This document shows positions 12,449 to 60,065 of a stretch of DNA of 64,000 nt, in pieces. Position numbers and translations under genes: made by a program. How positions within the stretch are numbered: the first letter of the stretch is position 1; the number at the start of each line of letters is the position of its first letter. The notes beneath the pieces are model-generated. The model did not search any database. It was not told the DNA's origin and saw only the letters and a list, made by a program, of their open reading frames with translations. The DNA comes from Nitrospirota bacterium (GTDB taxonomy: Bacteria; Nitrospirota; Thermodesulfovibrionia; Thermodesulfovibrionales; JdFR-86): positions 704,001-768,000 of the forward strand of contig CAVRJY010000001.1 of NCBI GenBank assembly GCA_963721805.1. Reading direction: 5' to 3'.

Positions 12449-12486
12449 AAAAAAACTCCCGCCCTCGCAATCCCGAGAGTAGGAGT
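12449..12486 (-). terminator. Intrinsic terminator forming the riboswitch expression platform
   Basis: Minus strand ACTCCTACTCTCG-GGATTG-CGAGGGCGGGAGT-TTTTTTT; the 5' arm overlaps the aptamer 3' end. Confidence 0.85.
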
Positions 12487-12530
12487 CATCAGTCCGGCTT
12501 CGGACGGTTAAAGGCGAACTCCATCGCCGT
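12478..12530 (-). ncRNA. Fluoride (crcB) riboswitch
   Basis: Minus strand GGCGATGGAGTTCGCC-TTTAACC-GTCCGAAGCCGGAC-TGATGACTCCTAC fits the fluoride aptamer consensus, with GGAGT/ACTCC pseudoknot; crcB lies downstream. Confidence 0.93.
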
Positions 12531-12557
12531 GTATAAACATTAGCACAAGGATTTTAT

Positions 12558-17479: not shown

Positions 17480-18334
17480 ATGGTCAAGTTCACCGAGCAC
17501 GTGCCGTTTGTCGATATCGCTTACAGCTATGAGGTCGAGAAGGTCCTCTACAGGGGCAAGAGCAAGTTTCAGGACATCATGGTATTTACGAACCCGCAGT
17601 TCGGCAAGATGCTGATCCTCGACGGCGCGGTGCAGATCACCGAGCGCGACGAGTTTTTCTACCACGAGATGATTACCCACCCGCTGATGCACGCCCACCC
17701 GAACCCGAAGCGCGTCGTGGTCATAGGCGGCGGCGACGGCGGCACGGTGCGCGAGGTCCTAAAGCACAAATCGGTCGAGAAGGTCTACTTCGTCGAGATC
17801 GACCCTGAGGTCATACGCGTATCGAGGGAGTTCTTCCCGACCGTGGCAGGAAGCGTAGGCGATCCGCGCGTCGAGATCAAGAACATGGACGGGGCGGAAT
17901 TTATCAAGTCGCTCAACAACGAGATCGACGTCGTGATCGTGGACTCCACCGACCCGATCGGGTTTGCGCGCAGCCTGTTCAGCGAGCAGTTCCTCCGCAC
18001 CCTGCATCGTGCGCTCACGCCTGAGGGGATGTACGTCACGCAGTCCGAGAGCATGCTGATGCACGCCGATATCGTCAGGGAGATACAGGAGACGATAAAG
18101 AAGGTCTTTCCGTTGACGGACCTCTATTCCACCTGCATTGCGACCTATCCGGGCAACTGGTGGACGTTCTCGTGCGGATCGAAGTCTCACGACATGCGCA
18201 CCATGCGCAGACCGTTTGAGGTCGAGACGAAATACTATGACGATGAAATACACGCGCACTCGTTCATGCCGAAGAGGCTTTACGCACGGCTTATGGTCGG
18301 GTGGCATCCGCTGGTAGTTTTCAAAGCGCGCTAA
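17480..18334 (+). CDS. speE: Polyamine aminopropyltransferase (spermidine synthase)
   Basis: LDGAVQITERDEFFYHEM, IGGGDGG, VDSTDP; RBS GGAGG; the stop codon lies inside repeat copy 1. Confidence 0.93.
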   Translation: MVKFTEHVPFVDIAYSYEVEKVLYRGKSKFQDIMVFTNPQFGKMLILDGAVQITERDEFFYHEMITHPLMHAHPNPKRVVVIGGGDGGTVREVLKHKSVEKVYFVEIDPEVIRVSREFFPTVAGSVGDPRVEIKNMDGAEFIKSLNNEIDVVIVDSTDPIGFARSLFSEQFLRTLHRALTPEGMYVTQSESMLMHADIVREIQETIKKVFPLTDLYSTCIATYPGNWWTFSCGSKSHDMRTMRRPFEVETKYYDDEIHAHSFMPKRLYARLMVGWHPLVVFKAR

Positions 18335-18388
18335 ATACGCGTGATACGTCGTCAGGGGGCAGCGCCCCCTCGCTCCTATTCGCGGCGC
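18323..18388 (+). repeat. Hairpin repeat family copy 1 (truncated, shortened apical stem)
   Basis: AAAGCGCGCTAAATACGCGTGATAC is nearly identical to the start of copy 3; it then runs GTCA-[GGGGGC AGC GCCCCC]-TCGCTCCTA like the reverse complement of copy 7. Confidence 0.75.
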
Positions 18389-19139: not shown

Positions 19140-19159
19140 GCTTTGCACAATGCAACACC

Positions 19160-19390
19160 TCATGCTGCCTTGGCGGGCTCGACCATGACCTTTCCGAAGG
19201 ACTGTATGACGAGTTCGTTAATGTCGGCCTTGTCCGAGACACCGAGTATCTCGATGCCCACGACGTTTCCGGCCCCGTCGTAGTCCGCGATGATATCCTC
19301 TGACAACTCGTCGGTATTGGAGATCTCGGTCTCCTTAAACCGCATGTAGATTGCGTCAGCCTCTTTTGAGTAGTGTATCCTCATGCTCAT
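19160..19390 (-). CDS. DUF2283-type protein (putative antitoxin)
   Basis: IHYSKEADAIYMRF...DIIADYDGAGNVVGIEILGVS signature. Confidence 0.85.
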   Translation of the reverse strand: MSMRIHYSKEADAIYMRFKETEISNTDELSEDIIADYDGAGNVVGIEILGVSDKADINELVIQSFGKVMVEPAKAA

Positions 19391-19626
19391 CGCCTCCCTA
19401 GGTACTTCTCGACCTTATCCGTGACATATACAGTTATCAGCCTGTCGCCATCAGCGACGACCCTTACGAGCTTCTGCCCGGCCTTCTTCTGGTAGACAAT
19501 CCTCTTGCCGCTAGGTACTGTGCTGTCCGGCATGGCGAGGACGGATTGGACCAGATCACGCGCGACCTTCCTCTCGTCCATCTGCAAGAGTATGTGGTCA
19601 GTCCATATCCATTGCCGCTCGGCCAT
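19387..19626 (-). CDS. DUF4258-type protein (putative RelE-like toxin)
   Basis: WTDHILLQMDERKV...LVRVVADGDRLITVY; 4-nt overlap with the DUF2283 gene. Confidence 0.8.
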   Translation of the reverse strand: MAERQWIWTDHILLQMDERKVARDLVQSVLAMPDSTVPSGKRIVYQKKAGQKLVRVVADGDRLITVYVTDKVEKYLGRR

Positions 19627-19850
19627 AAACCTGACTATTATCCTACATCAAAGCGGCCTGTTTGTGTAAGACCTCTTTAACTAACCATAGTTAATCAAAA
19701 ACGCACGGATTTTAATTTTTCCTATCAATTTCGGTTTATATATAAACCGTAGGTTATCGCTTTTTTTGTTTCGTTGTGCTTCAATATCGTATGAGTTTGA
19801 TATGGTCATATTTGATGGGCGGGGCAGGGGAGGCGGGAGAGAGTGCCACA

Positions 19851-20012
19851 TGTTCGGATAAGGCCGCAAAAACCGCACTTTTTATCCGAACATCCGAACA
19901 GGGACGATCTCGAAAAAATGATGTTTTCCGGGGAGTTAGCGTTGCTCTTGCCTCAAACATCCGAACACATAAAATAAAACGTGCGCGCGCGGAATGCGTA
20001 ACTATACCTAAG
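19851..20012 (+). repeat. ACATCCGAAC multi-repeat module A (homologous to 59683..59844)
   Basis: ATCCGAACATCCGAACA-54 nt-AAACATCCGAAC..ATAAAATAAAA...GCGCGCGCGG.ATGCGTAACTATA; inverted copy TGTTCGGAT at 19851. Confidence 0.85.
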
Positions 20013-20027
20013 CGCGGACATCAGAAC

Positions 20028-20203
20028 ATGCCGTTGACCTTGTGGGGCGCGGGGGGCGACCTTCTTCCGTGCCCCCCGAAAGCGCGCCCAAATCGTCTTC
20101 AGACAAGGCAGGGCAAGAAGACCGCCCGATGGTGTACTGTGACGTACATAGAGGGCGAGTCTTTGAAGCCCAACGAAGTATCAAGCGATTTGGCGCGCTT
20201 TCA
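20028..20203 (-). repeat. Hairpin repeat family copy 2 (type A linker)
   Basis: ATGCCGTTGACC tail, GGGGGGC...GCCCCCC mini-hairpin, long hairpin GAAAGCGCG...GTGTAC-TGTGAC-GTACAT...CGCGCTTTC. Confidence 0.92.
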
Positions 20204-20233
20204 CTACCTGCCAGTATGGTAAAATCCTAAGTT

Positions 20234-29492: not shown

Positions 29493-29510
29493 GGTTCTGT
29501 CGCTTCGCTG

Positions 29511-29677
29511 GAAAGACGCGCTAAATACGCGTGATACTGCGTCAGTGCTTCAAAGACACGCCCTCGGAGTACGTCTCAGTACACCGTCGGGCGGTCTTCT
29601 CGCCCTTCCTTGTCTGACGCGATTTATCGCGCTTTGGTGATACGCGCAGGGTCAAGCGCGAGCGGTCAACGGCATTG
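29511..29677 (+). repeat. Hairpin repeat family copy 3 (type B linker)
   Basis: GAAAGACGCGCTAAAT...GAGTAC-GTCTCA-GTACAC...ATTTATCGCGCTTT then GCGCGAGCGGTCAACGGCATTG. Confidence 0.92.
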
Positions 29678-29700: not shown

Positions 29701-30705
29701 TTAGTTTTTGGGGACAAACGAATACACGACGCCACTATTTGGCAATAACCATTCATTATACTGCATTGAAAAGAAACCTTCACGATGATCCTCAATAACC
29801 TTTTCTGGATGAGAGACCATCGGCTGAAACCTTAATTTCATTTCTTTAGGATATGATATTGTCATATAAAAAGTTTTTGTGGGATGTGCCATTGACCAAT
29901 TTGAAAACTGGCCTGTTTCCATTTTATAGACTGATTTTAATTCCACATACAATCCATTTTCGCTAAAATTACTCAAGGGGAAAATTAGTCCCTTTTGTTC
30001 AATTTCACTGCGCGGAACTTGCTTCTCAGTGCCATTGCATTTAACAACAAATTCATCATCTTTCTTATTCATTGACAATACGGGGTTGTTTTTTACCTTC
30101 ATTTCAACGCTTATAATATCTAAGAACTCTCCTGGATCTGGCTTCCACTTTATAGTATCCTGAATTTTTCCGCCAACCATTTTACAGGCATATGTAAGTC
30201 TATCGCTAATTAAAATACCTGGCGGTTCATCTGACTCTTCCACTACAATCTCGCACTTAACGTTATCTCTATATGGTTCGCTAATATACTTACTTAAGTT
30301 ATCCTGAAAATAATTCAAAAAACTTCCTTCCTTATCTATATCTGAGGTATGAAAATATGCTTTCAAGGTCTTAATCTGAAGATTTGAAAGGGTTTCTTGA
30401 TCCATAGAATTTAAATATTCTTGTTCCAAAACTACATTTTTCAATCTTTCCTCAAAATAATGCTGCCAATCAGGTAATTGCAAAAAGAAAGAAAATATGC
30501 CAGATGTGAAAATCGTGAAACCAAGCAGCTCAAAAAAATTATATATCAGCTTAGATATATCCGATGCTTTTTCAAAATCCGCCGGTTTATTATAAAGAGT
30601 TATTATCGCGATTAATAATCCCATTGATACCAAAAGAGTCGCGGACAAAACACTTAGCTTTCTCAGAATGTGTAAAATCTTCTTTTCTTTCTTTCCAGTT
30701 ATCAC
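29701..30705 (-). CDS. AT-rich hypothetical protein: two N-terminal TM helices plus soluble domain
   Basis: 334-aa ORF filling the AT-rich island; no family recognised. Confidence 0.75.
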   Translation of the reverse strand: MITGKKEKKILHILRKLSVLSATLLVSMGLLIAIITLYNKPADFEKASDISKLIYNFFELLGFTIFTSGIFSFFLQLPDWQHYFEERLKNVVLEQEYLNSMDQETLSNLQIKTLKAYFHTSDIDKEGSFLNYFQDNLSKYISEPYRDNVKCEIVVEESDEPPGILISDRLTYACKMVGGKIQDTIKWKPDPGEFLDIISVEMKVKNNPVLSMNKKDDEFVVKCNGTEKQVPRSEIEQKGLIFPLSNFSENGLYVELKSVYKMETGQFSNWSMAHPTKTFYMTISYPKEMKLRFQPMVSHPEKVIEDHREGFFSMQYNEWLLPNSGVVYSFVPKN

Positions 30706-30812: not shown

Positions 30813-30980
30813 ATCAATGCCGTTGACCGCTCGCGCGATTAGCACACAGCACCACCAAAGCGCGATAAATTAGGCTCAGACAAGGAACGGCGAGGACCCC
30901 AACCGGAGGCGTACTGTGTCGTACGTTGAGGATTGGGGCCGCAGCCGTGACGCAGTATCAGGCAATTTAGCGCGGCTTTC
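30813..30980 (-). repeat. Hairpin repeat family copy 4 (type B linker)
   Basis: CAATGCCGTTGACCGCTCGCGC tail, AAAGCGCGATAAATT...GCGTAC-TGTGTC-GTACGT...AATTTAGCGCGGCTTT. Confidence 0.92.
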
Positions 30981-32050
30981 CAATCCGCCCCTCTATCAAG
31001 AGATCAGGCCCGACGCGCCGCACCGTCATATCCCCTACCATGAGCGCGTCTTCGAGTTTGCGGAACGCATCGCCCCCGACGACCGGGAATGAGCGCAGCC
31101 CCGCCGATGATCTTGGGAGCGACGAATATCATCACCCGGTCCACGATGCCCTCCATCAGGGCATGGCCGTTGAGTGTCGCTCCACCCTCGATCAGCACCG
31201 AGTTCATCCCGATAGAGCCAAGCTCCCGAAGCAGCCACTTCAAGTCGAGCGTGCCCTTGTAGCCCAGTATCCTCACCCCGCGCGCCTCGAACGAGCGCGC
31301 CAGAGCACCACCACTCTCCCTCGTAACGATGATCGTATCCGGCGGGGTCTGAAGCACCCGTGCGCTGTCCGCGATGCGAAGTGACGGGTCGATGACCACG
31401 CGCACCGGCTGGTGCGCACCTCGAATGCGCGCGGTGAGTTCCGGGTCGTCGGCCGCTACGGTGCCGATCCCTGTGATGACCGCGTCCACCGAAGAGCGGA
31501 GCCTGTGCACGATCTTGCGCGCCGGTGCCGAGGTGATCCATTTCGACTGGCCCTCGGGTGTGGCGATCTTGCCATCTAGCGTCATCGCGGCCTTCAGGGT
31601 GACGAACGGGAGCCCGGTCGTGATTTGCTTGATATATGCCTCGTTGAGTGCGCGGGCCTTGTCCTCGAGCACGCAGCAGGTCGTCTTGATCCCGGCCGCC
31701 TCGATCTCGGCGATGCCCCGGCCCGAGACCTTCGGGTTTGGGTCCCTCATCGCGACCACCACGCGGGCCACTCCCGAGGCGATGATCGCTTTTGTGCAGG
31801 GCGGGGTGCGCTTCTTGGTGTGGCAGCAGGGCTCCAAAGAGACATAGAGCGTCGCACCACGCGCTTTCTCGCCCGCGCTTTGGAGCACGAGCGCCTCGGC
31901 GTGAGGCGTGCCTGCCCTGCGGTGGTAGTCCTCGGCGATGACCCGCCCGGAGCGCACCAGCACCGCGCCGACCATCGGGTTCGGGCTCGTGCGGCCCCGG
32001 CCGCGCGCAGCGAGCGCCAGGGCGCGTTTCATGTATAAAACATCGTCCAT
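30967..32050 (-). CDS. ribD: Riboflavin deaminase/reductase RibD, apparent frameshift near 31100
   Basis: TSPNPMVGA, HAE, LEPCCH...TPPC, TLDGKIA, LIEGG. Removing one base at about 31100 restores APKIIGGLRSFPVVGG...VGPDLLIEGRIGKPR*. Confidence 0.92.
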
Positions 32051-34297: not shown

Positions 34298-34319
34298 TTT
34301 TCTCCCCGTTACCTTCTCT

Positions 34320-34486
34320 AAAGCCGCGCGAAATCGCTTGATACTGCGTCATCAGTCGAAAATCGCCCTCGGAGTACATCCCAGTACACCTGCGGGACGA
34401 TTTTCTCCTTCTTCCTTGTCTCAAGACGATTTCTCGCGCTTTAATGTTGCCCCTGCCTGATCGCGCGAGCGGTCAACGGCATTGAT
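34320..34486 (+). repeat. Hairpin repeat family copy 5 (type B linker)
   Basis: AAAGCCGCGCGAAATCG...GAGTAC-ATCCCA-GTACAC...CGATTTCTCGCGCTTT then ATCGCGCGAGCGGTCAACGGCATTGAT. Confidence 0.92.
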
Positions 34487-55497: not shown

Positions 55498-55626
55498 ACC
55501 TTACCGTAGCATGGCCTAAATTTCAACCTCTGGTGTGAAAGCGCTCCAAATCGCTTGATACTGCGTTGGGCATCGGAGACTCGCCCTCTATGTACGTCAC
55601 AGTACACCATCGGGCGGTCTTCTTGC

Positions 55627-56721
55627 AGTGGATTGTCAAGCCAAGTGCAACAGGCGCGCATTTGCCGCAACCTCGGCGGGTGCCCTGTAGTCCAGCGTTT
55701 TTCTTGGTCTGTTGTTAATCTCATCAACGACGCGATCCAGCTGCTCCTGCGTTACTGTGTTGAAGTCGATCCCCTTCGGAAAGTACTGCCGCAGCAGCCC
55801 GTTGAGGTTTTCGTTCTGGCCGCGCTGCCATGAGCAATAGGGGTCGGCGAAGTATACGTCGATCCCCATCATGTATTTTAAGTCCCTGTAGCATGCAAAC
55901 TCGCTGCCCCTGTCCACGGTCATGGTCATACGCATGCCCTGCCGCAGGCCTCCCAGCGCCGATACGGCGGCCTCCCTCAACGCCTCCGAGCCGGGCCTCG
56001 GCATCTTCCTCGATATAAGGTAGAGGCTCTTGCGCTCGTTAAACGTTGCGATGCACGTTTTCCCGTCGAACCCGTAGACGGTATCCGCCTCCCAATCCCC
56101 GAAGCGTCCCTTCCGGACCACGATCTCGGGGCGCTGCCTGATGCTCAACGCCCCATTGAACCGGCCCCTGGTCTCAGGCCCCCGGGCTTTTCTGTAGCTC
56201 CTTCCCTTACGCCTCAGCATGCGATGCATCGAGCCCCCCATCGCCCTGTCCTGCCGTATCCATCTGTATAGCGTGGCAAAGGATATCCGCATCTCTGTGC
56301 TATGTGGATGGTCAAGCTTAAGGCGGCCCGACACCTGCTCCGGCGACCAACGCCTGCAAAGTCCCGCCATCGCATAGCCGATCAGGCCGTCCGGCCAGCG
56401 CTTCAGGCGTCTGCTCGCAAAATGCCTTCGGCGGACATAGAGCACGGTTGCGGCGTGCGCGCCATAGAAAGACTTCTTCGTGTTGCGCCGCAGCTCCCGG
56501 CTCACGCTCGATGGCGAGCGGCCAAGCTGGCGCCCGATCTCACGTATGCTCACCCCCGCATAACGCATCCTTGCGATGCCCTCCCGCTCATCAATGCTAA
56601 AATGACTGTAGCCCATCGTCCCTCCCTCTCTGTTTCGTCTGGTTGGTACTTGACTCTAACAGAACAGGATGACGATGGGCTTTTTCTTTCACAGGTGTTG
56701 CACTTCACATTACAATCCGCG
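55627..56721 (-). mobile_element. IS30-family insertion sequence
   Basis: Imperfect IRs GTGGATTGTCAAGCCAAGTGCAACA / GCGGATTGTAATGTGAAGTGCAACA, 2-bp GC target duplication, transposase inside. Confidence 0.92.
55636..56616 (-). CDS. IS30-family transposase
   Basis: LGRSPSSVSRELRRN, WSPEQVSGR, GDWEADT, DRGSEF, PYCSWQRGQNENLNGLLRQYFPKG. Confidence 0.95.
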   Translation of the reverse strand: MGYSHFSIDEREGIARMRYAGVSIREIGRQLGRSPSSVSRELRRNTKKSFYGAHAATVLYVRRRHFASRRLKRWPDGLIGYAMAGLCRRWSPEQVSGRLKLDHPHSTEMRISFATLYRWIRQDRAMGGSMHRMLRRKGRSYRKARGPETRGRFNGALSIRQRPEIVVRKGRFGDWEADTVYGFDGKTCIATFNERKSLYLISRKMPRPGSEALREAAVSALGGLRQGMRMTMTVDRGSEFACYRDLKYMMGIDVYFADPYCSWQRGQNENLNGLLRQYFPKGIDFNTVTQEQLDRVVDEINNRPRKTLDYRAPAEVAANARLLHLA

Positions 56722-56891
56722 GCCCTGCCTTGTCTGAAGCCGATTTGGCCGCGCTTTCGGGGGGCACGGAAGAAGGTCGCCCCCCGCGCCCCCAAGGAAA
56801 GGTATTGATTTGGAGATAAATGCGCAAAATCAAATAAACTGTTACCATTATTCGATTTCAATTGTGCAATATGAATGATATAATTGTGTGC

Positions 56892-58293: not shown

Positions 58294-59493
58294 TGTAAAA
58301 GTCCAGTGCTCTCCGGACAGTTTTCCATCTCATCGGTCGCACTGATCAGGCGGCCTCCTCCTCAGCTTTCTGTCTTAGCTTTTTGCCCAGCTCGATAGTT
58401 TCTATTGGCCGTCTGCCCATGTTGCGATAGCCCTTGTGAGGGCGCTCGTTGTTGTAGTGGTGCAGCCACCGGTCGAGGTCATACTGCAGCTCATCGAGCG
58501 ATGCGTAGAACCGGTACCTGAACGTCTCCGAGAAGAACTCGTCCAGGATGGTGCGATTAAACCGCTCCACGAATCCGTTTGTCCTCGGTGTCGCCACCTT
58601 CGTCCTTCGATGCGCGATGTCGTGAAGCGCCAGAAACAGCTCGTACGGATGCCGCAGCAGCTTGCCGCAGTACTCCGAGCCGTTGTCCGTCAGGACATGC
58701 TGGACCCTGATGCCATGGTCCTCGTAAAACGGCAGCACGCGGTCGTAGAGCACGTCGGCCGCCGTCTCGGGCCTCTTCGACGTGTACAGCTTGCCGAAGG
58801 CATAAGAGCCGTACGTGTCCACCACGGCCTGCAGATACACGGTCCCGATGCCCTTGAGCTTGCCCACCGTGAAGGTGTCCTGGCTGAGCAGATAGCCCGG
58901 ATATGCGCTCTCCACATGCCTTTCCCTGAAGCACGGATTGGCCCGCTCGATGAGCTTGACCTGCTCCTCCGTTAGCTCGATCTCCTTGCCGTTAGCCTCC
59001 TGCTCAAGCCGGAGGATGCGCTTGGCCTTCGACTCCAGCCCCTCGCGAACCTGGATGCGATACACAGTTGAGGGACGCACCAATATGCCCTCCAGAAGCA
59101 GGTGCTCGAAGATGCGCTGCTTCCCCCACCGGGGGTGAGCAAGGCTCATCTCGATCACTCGCTTGCGGGCCTCCTCAGGCGTCTTGTGGGGACAGCTACG
59201 CGCTATCGGCGGAAGGTCCGCGAGCCCCGCAAACCCCTGCTCCTGAAACGCCCGCTTGTACTCGTAAAACTGGCTGCGGCTCACCCCCCGGCGGCGACAG
59301 GCCTCCGACACGTTCCTGAGCCTCTCGGCCAGCTGAAGCATTGAAAGCCTCCCTTGTGATATCTTTTCTTTGGCAGTCATGCCCTTCCTCCTTCGGTCTG
59401 TGTTTTGTGGTGAAACATTCTAACCGATGGAAGGGCTGGCTGCCGCCTGCTTTTTCCAGCCTGATACTGTCCGGTAAGAGCGTAACCTTTACA
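58294..59493 (-). mobile_element. IS481-family insertion sequence
   Basis: Ends TGTAAAAGT...CCGGACAGT / TGTAAAGGT...CCGGACAGT, 8-bp duplication CCCCGGAA at 58286 and 59494. Confidence 0.92.
58346..59380 (-). CDS. IS481-family transposase
   Basis: NVSEACRRRGVSRSQFY, QDTF, LTDNGSEY, PRTNGFVERFNRT, YNNERPH. Confidence 0.94.
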   Translation of the reverse strand: MTAKEKISQGRLSMLQLAERLRNVSEACRRRGVSRSQFYEYKRAFQEQGFAGLADLPPIARSCPHKTPEEARKRVIEMSLAHPRWGKQRIFEHLLLEGILVRPSTVYRIQVREGLESKAKRILRLEQEANGKEIELTEEQVKLIERANPCFRERHVESAYPGYLLSQDTFTVGKLKGIGTVYLQAVVDTYGSYAFGKLYTSKRPETAADVLYDRVLPFYEDHGIRVQHVLTDNGSEYCGKLLRHPYELFLALHDIAHRRTKVATPRTNGFVERFNRTILDEFFSETFRYRFYASLDELQYDLDRWLHHYNNERPHKGYRNMGRRPIETIELGKKLRQKAEEEAA

Positions 59494-59844: not shown

Positions 59845-60017
59845 GCCGTTGACCTCGCGGGGCGCGGGGGGCGACCTTCTTCCGTGCCCCCCGAAAGCGC
59901 GATAAATCGTGTCAGACTAGGAGCGGCGAGCAGACCGCCCGATGGTGTACTGTGACGTACATAGAGGGCGAGGATGCGAGCCGTGACAACGTATCACGCG
60001 AGTTTAGCGCGCTTTCA
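59845..60017 (-). repeat. Hairpin repeat family copy 7 (type A linker)
   Basis: GCCGTTGACC tail, GGGGCGCGGGGGGCGACCTTCTTCCGTGCCCCCCGAAAGCGCG identical to copy 2, apex GTGTACTGTGACGTACAT. Confidence 0.92.
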
Positions 60018-60065
60018 AGAAAGCGGGCTAACCTTGACTAGCTTATATATATCAGGTACATTGGA

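Follow-up and report, generated by a model that had tools for sequence, protein, structure and literature searches.

A dispersed hairpin repeat of a Nitrospirota genome that recurs across bacterial phyla and may be a mobile non-coding element

The window, i.e. the whole stretch of 64 kb that was analysed (C1:704001-768000), belongs to the largest contig, C1, of a 2.78-Mb assembly with nine contigs and a GC content of about 60%. The repeat copy under study is located on the minus strand at 29509-29675 (29511-29677 in the first-pass annotation). It is matched by a covariance model with 81.7 bits, and its fold has a z-score of -4.45. The core hairpin occupies 29509-29638 and the 5' extension terminates in the head motif ATGCCGTTGACC, which reads GGTCAACGGCAT on the plus strand (29664-29675). 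On its own strand, the copy consists of the head motif, followed by a short variable G/C-rich segment and by a hairpin of 125-130 nt, and a distance of 19 nt separates its 3' end from the stop codon of the GGDEF gene (Pfam GGDEF) that converges on it. A partner copy on the plus strand (30817-30982; covariance model score 89.8 bits) stands head-to-head with it. The head motif of this partner is found at 30817-30828 and its core hairpin at 30854-30982; a ribD-like gene converges on the 3' end of the copy, with its stop codon 24 nt away. Between the GGDEF and ribD-like genes, the two copies bracket an AT-rich segment, in which the ORF map shows an orphan ORF of 334 aa in the cargo position between the two heads (29701-30705, minus strand, 34% GC). 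No Pfam family matched this ORF, and it shares 32% identity with a cargo ORF of 330 aa at C1:671101-672093. Both orphan ORFs are AT-rich (34-35% GC), lack a Pfam family and are each flanked by head-to-head hairpin copies.

Altogether, the window contains five full copies, one degenerate copy and two fragments. A full copy of the dominant subfamily is present on the plus strand at 20028-20205 (75.1 bits, z-score -7.71) and comprises the head motif, a small G/C hairpin and the core (20076-20205). Joined to it at 19679-20027, on the same strand, is a long 5' module with the palindrome GGTTTATATATAAACC and ATCCGAACA repeats. Just outside this module, two small back-to-back ORFs on the minus strand (19150-19630) show a toxin-antitoxin-like arrangement. 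The full copy at 34317-34482 on the minus strand (67.3 bits) has a divergent yet paired middle stem, and its apex loop is TGGGAT. In the full plus-strand copy at 59845-60030 (core 59891-60019, z-score -6.95, 75.1 bits), the 3' tail CAAGAAAGCGGGC duplicates the beginning of the outer stem, and the head side holds a partial long module and an IS. The minus strand of the window also encodes an rve/HTH_32 transposase of 344 aa (58346-59380), whose Pfam scores equal those of an ORF at C1:669775-670809 (344 aa), which in turn is 100% identical to an ORF at C2:405942-406976; all three transposase ORFs lie on the head side of a hairpin copy, beside GGAACTGGTTCC-type repeats. The degenerate copy (55524-55694, minus strand, z-score -2.55) has retained the right half and the apex, while its left loop motif and outer stem are broken, and it did not reach an E-value of 1e-6 with the covariance model. 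The two fragments, both detected on the minus strand by the profile search, represent either only the 5' part of the element (56722-56795, i.e. C1:760722-760795; profile positions 21-87) or only its 3' part (18316-18361, i.e. C1:722316-722361; profile positions 137-181).

All strings that had been quoted in the first-pass annotation are indeed present in the window. This applies to the outer stem AAAGCGCG..AAAT / ATTT..CGCG(n)CTTT, to the motif AGACAAGG opposite ACGCAGTATCA, to the apex loops TGTGAC, TGAGAC, TGTGTC and TGGGAT, and to the middle stems AAGACCGCCC/GGGCGAGTCTT (copy 20076-20205), GGACCCCAACC/GGATTGGGGCC (copy 30854-30982) and GAAAATCGTCCC/GGGCGATTTTC (minus-strand copy 34317-34445). 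The apex pattern GTAC-N6-GTAC occurs six times, compared to 0.33 ± 0.62 times in 100 shuffled windows, none of which reached six. Five copies that were folded singly as RNA formed long hairpins with z-scores from -2.6 to -7.7, and the complements of the same copies gave z-scores from -2.5 to -7.0. The weakest fold was that of the degenerate copy at 55.5 kb, which was equalled by 3 out of 200 shuffles.

A profile derived from the five window copies yielded 236 nhmmer matches at E < 0.01 in the whole genome, 201 of them at least 100 nt long and 170 near full length. The family makes up approximately 1% of this genome. The copies are scattered across all contigs and both strands, with 58 plus and 58 minus orientations on C1. 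On C1 they are unevenly spread: the initial 800 kb contain 19-24 copies per 200 kb, about three times as many as the remainder of this contig (6-8 per 200 kb). Genome-wide, fragments with only the 3' part (approximately 25) are more common than those with only the 5' part (approximately 11), and at C1:456393-456634 (minus strand) the right hairpin arm alone is present in three tandem copies (profile positions ~104/114-179). Another repeated sequence of this genome is an IS200-like element of 602 bp with six 100%-identical copies (C1:42301, 366622, 1252034 and 1452182; C4:138543 and 146508), which encodes a Y1 transposase of 143-144 aa and has end hairpins of the type CCCCGTGG..CCACGGGG. As for the age of the hairpin family, 49 of 77 cores of exactly 123 nt show only 3-8 differences from their consensus, which points to a fairly recent spread; the remainder belong to divergent subfamilies.

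The position of the copies relative to genes was determined with a crude ORF-based gene map. For 111 of 170 copies, a gene converges on the 3' end and its stop codon is a median of 9 nt away, with an offset that is variable (-2 to +24 nt in most copies), and the other 59 copies lie upstream of a gene on the same strand (median 58 nt). The same placement at gene ends was found by eye for 10 out of 12 loci from other phyla. This nearness to gene ends is mostly explained by intergenic gaps of only a few bases, as is apparent from the empty sites described below. The true end of the element lies approximately 9-12 nt past ...GCGCTTT in an A-rich tail with the consensus S-A-A-A-A-A-R-G-C, and this tail duplicates the beginning of the outer stem in 39 of 167 copies, compared to a background of 1.4%.

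The first-pass annotation had proposed that the repeat is conserved as a structure, with covarying stems and fixed loop motifs, and that selection acts on a fold of about 125 nt. Both proposals are borne out by the structural alignments. Of 39 seed sequences, 38 fold singly into one shared architecture. A stem P1 of approximately 20 bp, which carries an A.G mismatch or a bulge, is followed by an asymmetric internal loop with UCAGACAAGGA on the 5' strand and GACGCAGUAUCA on the 3' strand. This loop contains two small conserved pairings and has a tandem G.A loop at its inner edge. Distal to it, there are a long variable stem P2, a short P3, a second tandem G.A loop and finally P4, the apex GCGUAC/GUACGU, which is closed by a G.U pair and has a variable loop of 6 nt. 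The conserved strand reads TCAGACAAGG ... GTAC-N6-GTAC ... GACGCAGTATCA.

RNAalifold recovered just 18 pairs from a plain MAFFT alignment, because the variable stems are out of register, and we therefore used a covariance model (R1) that was built on the structure of the seed sequences. With R1, 82 matches from other taxa (69 distinct sequences) and 84 matches from 455 kb of this genome were aligned. Both alignments are fitted to the model's own structure, and kinship among the sequences inflates the cell counts. In the other taxa, 84.0% of the pair cells are paired, compared to 62.5 ± 0.5% after shuffling and 29-48% with a slid partner, and 39 of 45 pairs vary on both sides (636 such cells vs. 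204 ± 13 in the shuffled control). In this genome, 79.0% of the pair cells are paired (72.1 ± 0.3% shuffled, 34-42% slid), and 33 of 45 pairs vary on both sides (262 cells vs. 105 shuffled). The variable stem falls into about six sequence clusters here, the largest of which accounts for 112 of 123 cores, and one representative of each cluster still folds with 18-22 pairs. Independent compensatory events within this genome are therefore few, and it is the cross-taxon set that carries weight. In independent lineages, compensatory changes exceed the controls of either kind, shuffled or slid, which supports selection on the fold. The invariance of the motifs in the first alignments was imposed by the search pattern itself. 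Within the phylum, R1 matches include combinations such as UAGACAAGG with ACGCCGUAUAA and GUUGCAAGG with ACGCCGCAAAUGG as well as an AUAC/GUAU apex, and what these variants have in common is limited to CAAGG, GACGC, the apex helix and the G.A loops.

The distribution of the repeat is broad. When a pattern of three conserved motifs was scanned over one genome per prokaryotic species, at least 45 loci were found. Among the matches listed are Clostridia, Christensenella, Ca. Limadaptatus, Phascolarctobacterium, Anaeroplasmataceae and a Bacteroidaceae MAG, and furthermore Gallionellaceae, Sideroxydans, Berkiella and Desulfovibrionaceae. Five of these genomes contain 1-8 copies each, and the reversed control pattern gave none. 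For the occurrence in Geobacter and Nitrospira that the first-pass annotation had suggested, the 45 loci among the matches listed give no confirmation, since they name other taxa. Approximately 18 of the 45 listed loci lie within 600 nt of a contig end. In Clostridia and Berkiella, tandem arrays of 2-4 diverged units with a period of about 130 nt are present instead of dispersed single copies (L068 1240-1612, L065 1344-1607, L062 1182-1730 and L034). Within the phylum of the window itself, R1 detected the element at E ≤ 1e-5 in 25 of 151 evenly drawn genomes, and these carriers are concentrated in certain families (11/11, 5/6 and 3/3), while four other large families gave 0/27, 0/27, 0/18 and 0/12. 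The copy numbers per genome in this sample are lower bounds, since at most 22 candidates per genome were scored. BLAST searches for the repeat in 40 close relatives gave no match, the pattern scan of viral contigs gave no locus, and plasmids contained no match in distant-mode blastn with a Clostridia unit and a window copy as queries. Among the matches listed by a literature search on REP/MITE repeats together with Nitrospirota, none describes the repeat, and those listed for its motif strings concern unrelated primers only.

Direct evidence for mobility comes from orthologous sites that were compared within one genus of the phylum. At four sites, one species has a unit of 140-172 nt where others have 7-23 nt. 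At the first of them, a unit of 172 nt is present in one species (G052), whereas three congeners have 13-23 nt. At another site, only one species (G069) has the unit. It sits precisely between the stop codons of two converging genes, which in a congener (G091) are separated by 1 nt. Moreover, one gene of G052 is flanked by inverted units of 140 and 145 nt at positions where G091 has 7 and 11 nt. At the first of these two sites, the overlapping stops of the neighbouring genes are replaced by stops inside the two ends of the element, and both neighbouring proteins retain their length. A fifth site of this genus is occupied in three species. The presence or absence of the element at orthologous sites of congeneric species indicates that it is mobile and inserts as a discrete unit that can also be retained. 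One filled site shows imperfect inverted ends (ATACRAACG ... CGTTYGTAT) flanked on either side by TA, a dinucleotide that the empty sites also contain, and is thus compatible with a TA duplication. At three other filled sites, a clear duplication is not seen. In the genome of the window, a comparison of the 3' flank with 3 kb of upstream sequence gave direct repeats at the level of the control, and a repeat of 16 nt was found in only 1 of 170 copies. No empty site was found for the copies of this genome, and a search of metagenomes with a protein of 643 aa from the window gave nothing above 41% identity. Mobility is therefore shown directly only in related lineages.

The reading that we prefer, and to which we give an even chance, is that of a mobile non-coding element whose conserved unit is one folded strand, putatively read by a trans-acting factor that is encoded elsewhere. 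It starts from the fold and its covariation, the cross-phylum distribution, the insertion polymorphism and the absence of hallmarks of known families. According to this proposal, the element would measure approximately 170-190 nt, and selection would retain its four helices whatever their sequence, together with fixed non-Watson-Crick features, namely the A.G mismatch or bulge in P1, the asymmetric loop, the two tandem G.A loops and the G.U-closed GUAC apex. The fold would serve as the recognition structure for the trans-acting factor. New copies would arise by insertion of the whole unit into very short intergenic gaps, often exactly between converging stops, and the element's own ends would then supply the stop codons. 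The variable parts of the repeat are complementary and the conserved motifs are asymmetric, which is the opposite of what is expected when a protein recognizes inverted repeat ends as duplex DNA. We infer that the folded form rather than duplex DNA is recognized and that a dedicated enzyme exists.

The first-pass annotation had named attC sites, REP sequences and the ends of IS200/IS605 elements as analogues and had also considered a structured ncRNA. The repeat appears to share with REPINs, attC sites and IS200/IS605 ends the conservation of a folded single strand, but it fails the defining tests of all three and of every Rfam family. No family of Rfam (release 15) matches the repeat, even at E ≤ 5. 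At the gathering score, Rfam detected only a tRNA and a fluoride riboswitch in the window and nothing in fourteen 3-kb loci from other taxa. When 18 loci were searched at E ≤ 0.1 and short stretches at E ≤ 5, the only matches on the element were noise below the gathering score (mir-3149, HgcE and nuoG). The fluoride riboswitch (crcB motif) lies on the minus strand at 12473-12537 and scores 58.6 bits against a gathering score of 34.

Like the repeat, REPINs and REP sequences are abundant, non-coding, intergenic and non-autonomous and form a long imperfect hairpin with compensated pairing (PMC3337134). The likeness to the REPINs and REP sequences of Proteobacteria, which are accompanied by RAYTs, extends to the location at gene ends and to inverted pairs. 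However, the repeat has no GTAG head (GTAG within the first 15 nt or CTAC within the last 15 nt was found in 0 of 154 cores), and its fold is a single long hairpin with asymmetric loops instead of two small palindromes. It also differs in that no RAYT is flanked by copies. The sole Y1 genes of this genome belong to the 602-bp IS, which has unrelated ends, and no element is found near the Y1 genes of three carrier genomes (G041, G042 and G045). There is no co-occurrence with Y1 either: Y1 genes are present in 105 of 151 genomes of the phylum irrespective of the element and are absent from three carriers (G052, G003 and G035), and one carrier without Y1 is 99% complete and has at least 13 copies. 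REP families are furthermore restricted to particular lineages, whereas the core of the repeat described here spans phyla.

Integron attC sites, including clusters of them without an integrase, are likewise folded single strands that conserve structure over sequence, with fixed unpaired features, a variable distal stem and adjoining accessory genes. The R'' (RYYYAAC) and R' (GTTRRRY) boxes, however, are absent from all 154 cores and all 39 seeds on either strand. Instead of forming one co-oriented array, the copies are scattered in either orientation, and none of them adjoins an integron integrase gene or any of the seven tyrosine recombinase genes of this genome. IS200/IS605 elements are mobile DNA recognized as single-strand hairpins, and they leave no target duplication. 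The end hairpins of the resident IS, however, are unrelated to the fold of the repeat, and the equal orientation of the copies on C1 and the missing link to Y1 are further differences from such ends and their miniature derivatives. A retroposed SINE-like element was also rejected, as no RVT_1 domain was found in this genome (G000, 94% complete) or in the genomes G069 and G097 and regular duplications are lacking, even though an A-rich tail and an excess of 3' fragments are SINE-like traits. In ERIC/IRU, Correia/NEMIS, RUP and similar MITE-like repeats, the ends are short inverted repeats, the duplications are fixed (TA or others), and none of these repeats extends beyond a genus or family. They resemble the repeat as imperfect palindromes of 100-200 nt near stop codons, which are co-transcribed with their neighbours and occur in hundreds of copies per genome, but the repeat described here conserves internal asymmetric loops, shows no regular duplication and spans phyla. 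The searches for Y1, RVT_1 and tyrosine recombinases thus revealed no mobilising enzyme for the repeat.

It is possible, though in our opinion doubtful, that the repeat is mainly a functional structured RNA. As a leader or trailer module on the forward strand, it would be cut out by the RNA processing of its neighbours (RNase P) and would bind a cellular protein or act in cis on processing or stability, and its copy number would reflect mobility only secondarily. This explanation draws on 51 elements from other lineages of the phylum, of which 11 precede a tRNA gene by 0-13 nt and one precedes a tmRNA gene by 2-3 nt; a further tmRNA-like start in the locus L257 is putative. All 12 elements are co-oriented with the adjoining gene, none is located downstream or antisense, and one copy fills the spacer between the genes for tRNA-Pro and tRNA-Arg. 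Since there is no room for a promoter between these elements and the mature 5' ends, transcription of the adjoining gene must include the forward strand as a leader, so that this strand has to exist at least as RNA in these related lineages. It would then be removed by RNase P, whose role in the maturation of tRNA and tmRNA precursors is well established. Tandem G.A loops and a closing pair that alternates between G.U, A.U and G.C are also typical of RNA, and in this genome the 59 copies upstream of a same-strand gene would be in a suitable position. The larger group of 111 copies, in contrast, faces the 3' end of a converging gene, where the forward RNA would be antisense or not be transcribed at all. 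No conserved promoter was found across the copies, the one promoter-like site (19948-19975) belongs to the copy at 20 kb alone, and there is no terminator-like site around this copy. In the long module, the G/C palindrome with a T-run, as read from the alignment, would be terminator-like for reverse-strand transcripts only. The genes next to the copies are functionally unrelated. A tRNA gene is near only 3 of 201 copies in this genome, at 71-149 nt and in no case nearer, and adjoins none of 67 pattern matches in other phyla.

R1 scores the forward strand with 75-118 bits and the reverse strand with at most 23 bits. Folding also favours the forward strand, in 125 of 154 copies of this genome and, by about 5 kcal/mol, in 29 of 35 copies elsewhere. 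In the cross-taxon alignment, the pair that closes the apex is G-U in 39, A-U in 19 and G-C in 7 sequences, a variation that makes sense on the forward strand only. The choice of the strand from an asymmetry of G-U over A-C, which had been suggested along with the first description of the repeat, did not succeed. The cross-taxon alignment contains 122 G-U and 109 A-C pair cells (93 vs. 109 without one column of mostly G.U), and the best own folds of the sequences have 72 G-U pairs on either strand. The variable helices show no excess of G-U, which speaks against the RNA explanation, and it is the conserved purine-rich loops alone that make the forward strand fold better. The wobble test cannot decide the strand and is probably uninformative, since decaying copies gain G.T and A.C mismatches equally. 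The copies on C1 also show no orientation bias, unlike elements that move on the lagging-strand template.

A rather unlikely explanation is that the repeat serves for recombination or docking. Gene ends would be marked by the element, in folded or duplex form, for the capture of accessory DNA, and inverted heads would bracket exchangeable cargo. Working models for such a role are the attC sites of integrons and the Xer-dependent dif modules of Acinetobacter plasmids. The head side of the copies does have the features of a cargo region. The mean GC content is 0.50 on the head (5') side and 0.61 on the 3' side, and flanks below 45% GC adjoin 54 of 170 heads but only 1 of 170 tails (4% of background windows). 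Close pairs are oriented head-to-head in 47 cases and tail-to-tail in five. Apart from the studied pair, the DNA between heads contains IS elements, an MNT/HepT pair, HEPN, Abi_C and many orphan ORFs. The six IS200-like copies and the three rve-type IS copies seen are all located in AT-rich head regions, two of the IS200-like copies even inside a long module. Genome-wide, approximately 45 copies carry this long non-coding 5' module (about 350-380 nt), which comprises the palindrome, 3-5 of the ATCCGAACA repeats and a G/C palindrome and is always situated between the cargo and the hairpin head. However, the junction to the cargo lies 50-430 nt from the hairpin and never inside it, no conserved recombinase is nearby, and, as mentioned above, attC boxes are absent. 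In the other taxa, the neighbours are housekeeping genes and the copies occur alone or in tandem and free of cargo. AT-rich insertions may also simply accumulate where they are harmless.

That the repeat is an ordinary MITE from a DDE-type insertion sequence, with the hairpin as a by-product of long inverted ends and no selection for a folded form, is improbable. The single filled site with 9-nt inverted ends and flanking TA and the mismatch types without strand signal are opposed by asymmetric conserved and complementary variable segments, by the three filled sites without a clear duplication, by the one long target duplication among 170 copies of this genome and by 12 examined loci from other taxa in which neither a transposase linked to a copy nor a parent IS was found.

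An extension of the preferred reading, that of a mobile element whose folded strand is recognized, would go considerably further. The hairpin might be the active core of an undescribed mobile or self-processing RNA/DNA element common to bacterial phyla, in which the two internal loops dock or are recognized as a unit. RNase P might free the RNA from pre-tRNA or pre-tmRNA leaders in some lineages, and the spread of the element might depend on a ribozyme-like activity or on a class of enzymes that has so far not been connected with transposition. The large loop may also resemble loop B of the hairpin ribozyme, a likeness that found no support from Rfam. We regard this extension as speculative and unlikely.

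What is new here are the insertion polymorphism between congeners, the strict co-orientation with tRNA and tmRNA genes as their leader, the negative outcome of the co-occurrence tests, the lack of asymmetry in the wobble test and the caveat concerning ascertainment by the search pattern. REP, ERIC and Correia repeats usually stay within one lineage and depend on a transposase of a known type. Here, gut Clostridia and sediment lineages share a single structural core with fixed non-canonical features, which is not explained by any catalogued RNA family, transposase or recombinase. Its insertion precisely between converging stop codons leaves both genes intact, and in related lineages it is the 5' leader of essential tRNA and tmRNA genes. 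With the covariance model R1, annotators can label or mask the element, which is widespread and causes breaks in metagenome assemblies. Finding the factor that reads the fold could reveal a new mechanism of mobilisation or RNA processing.
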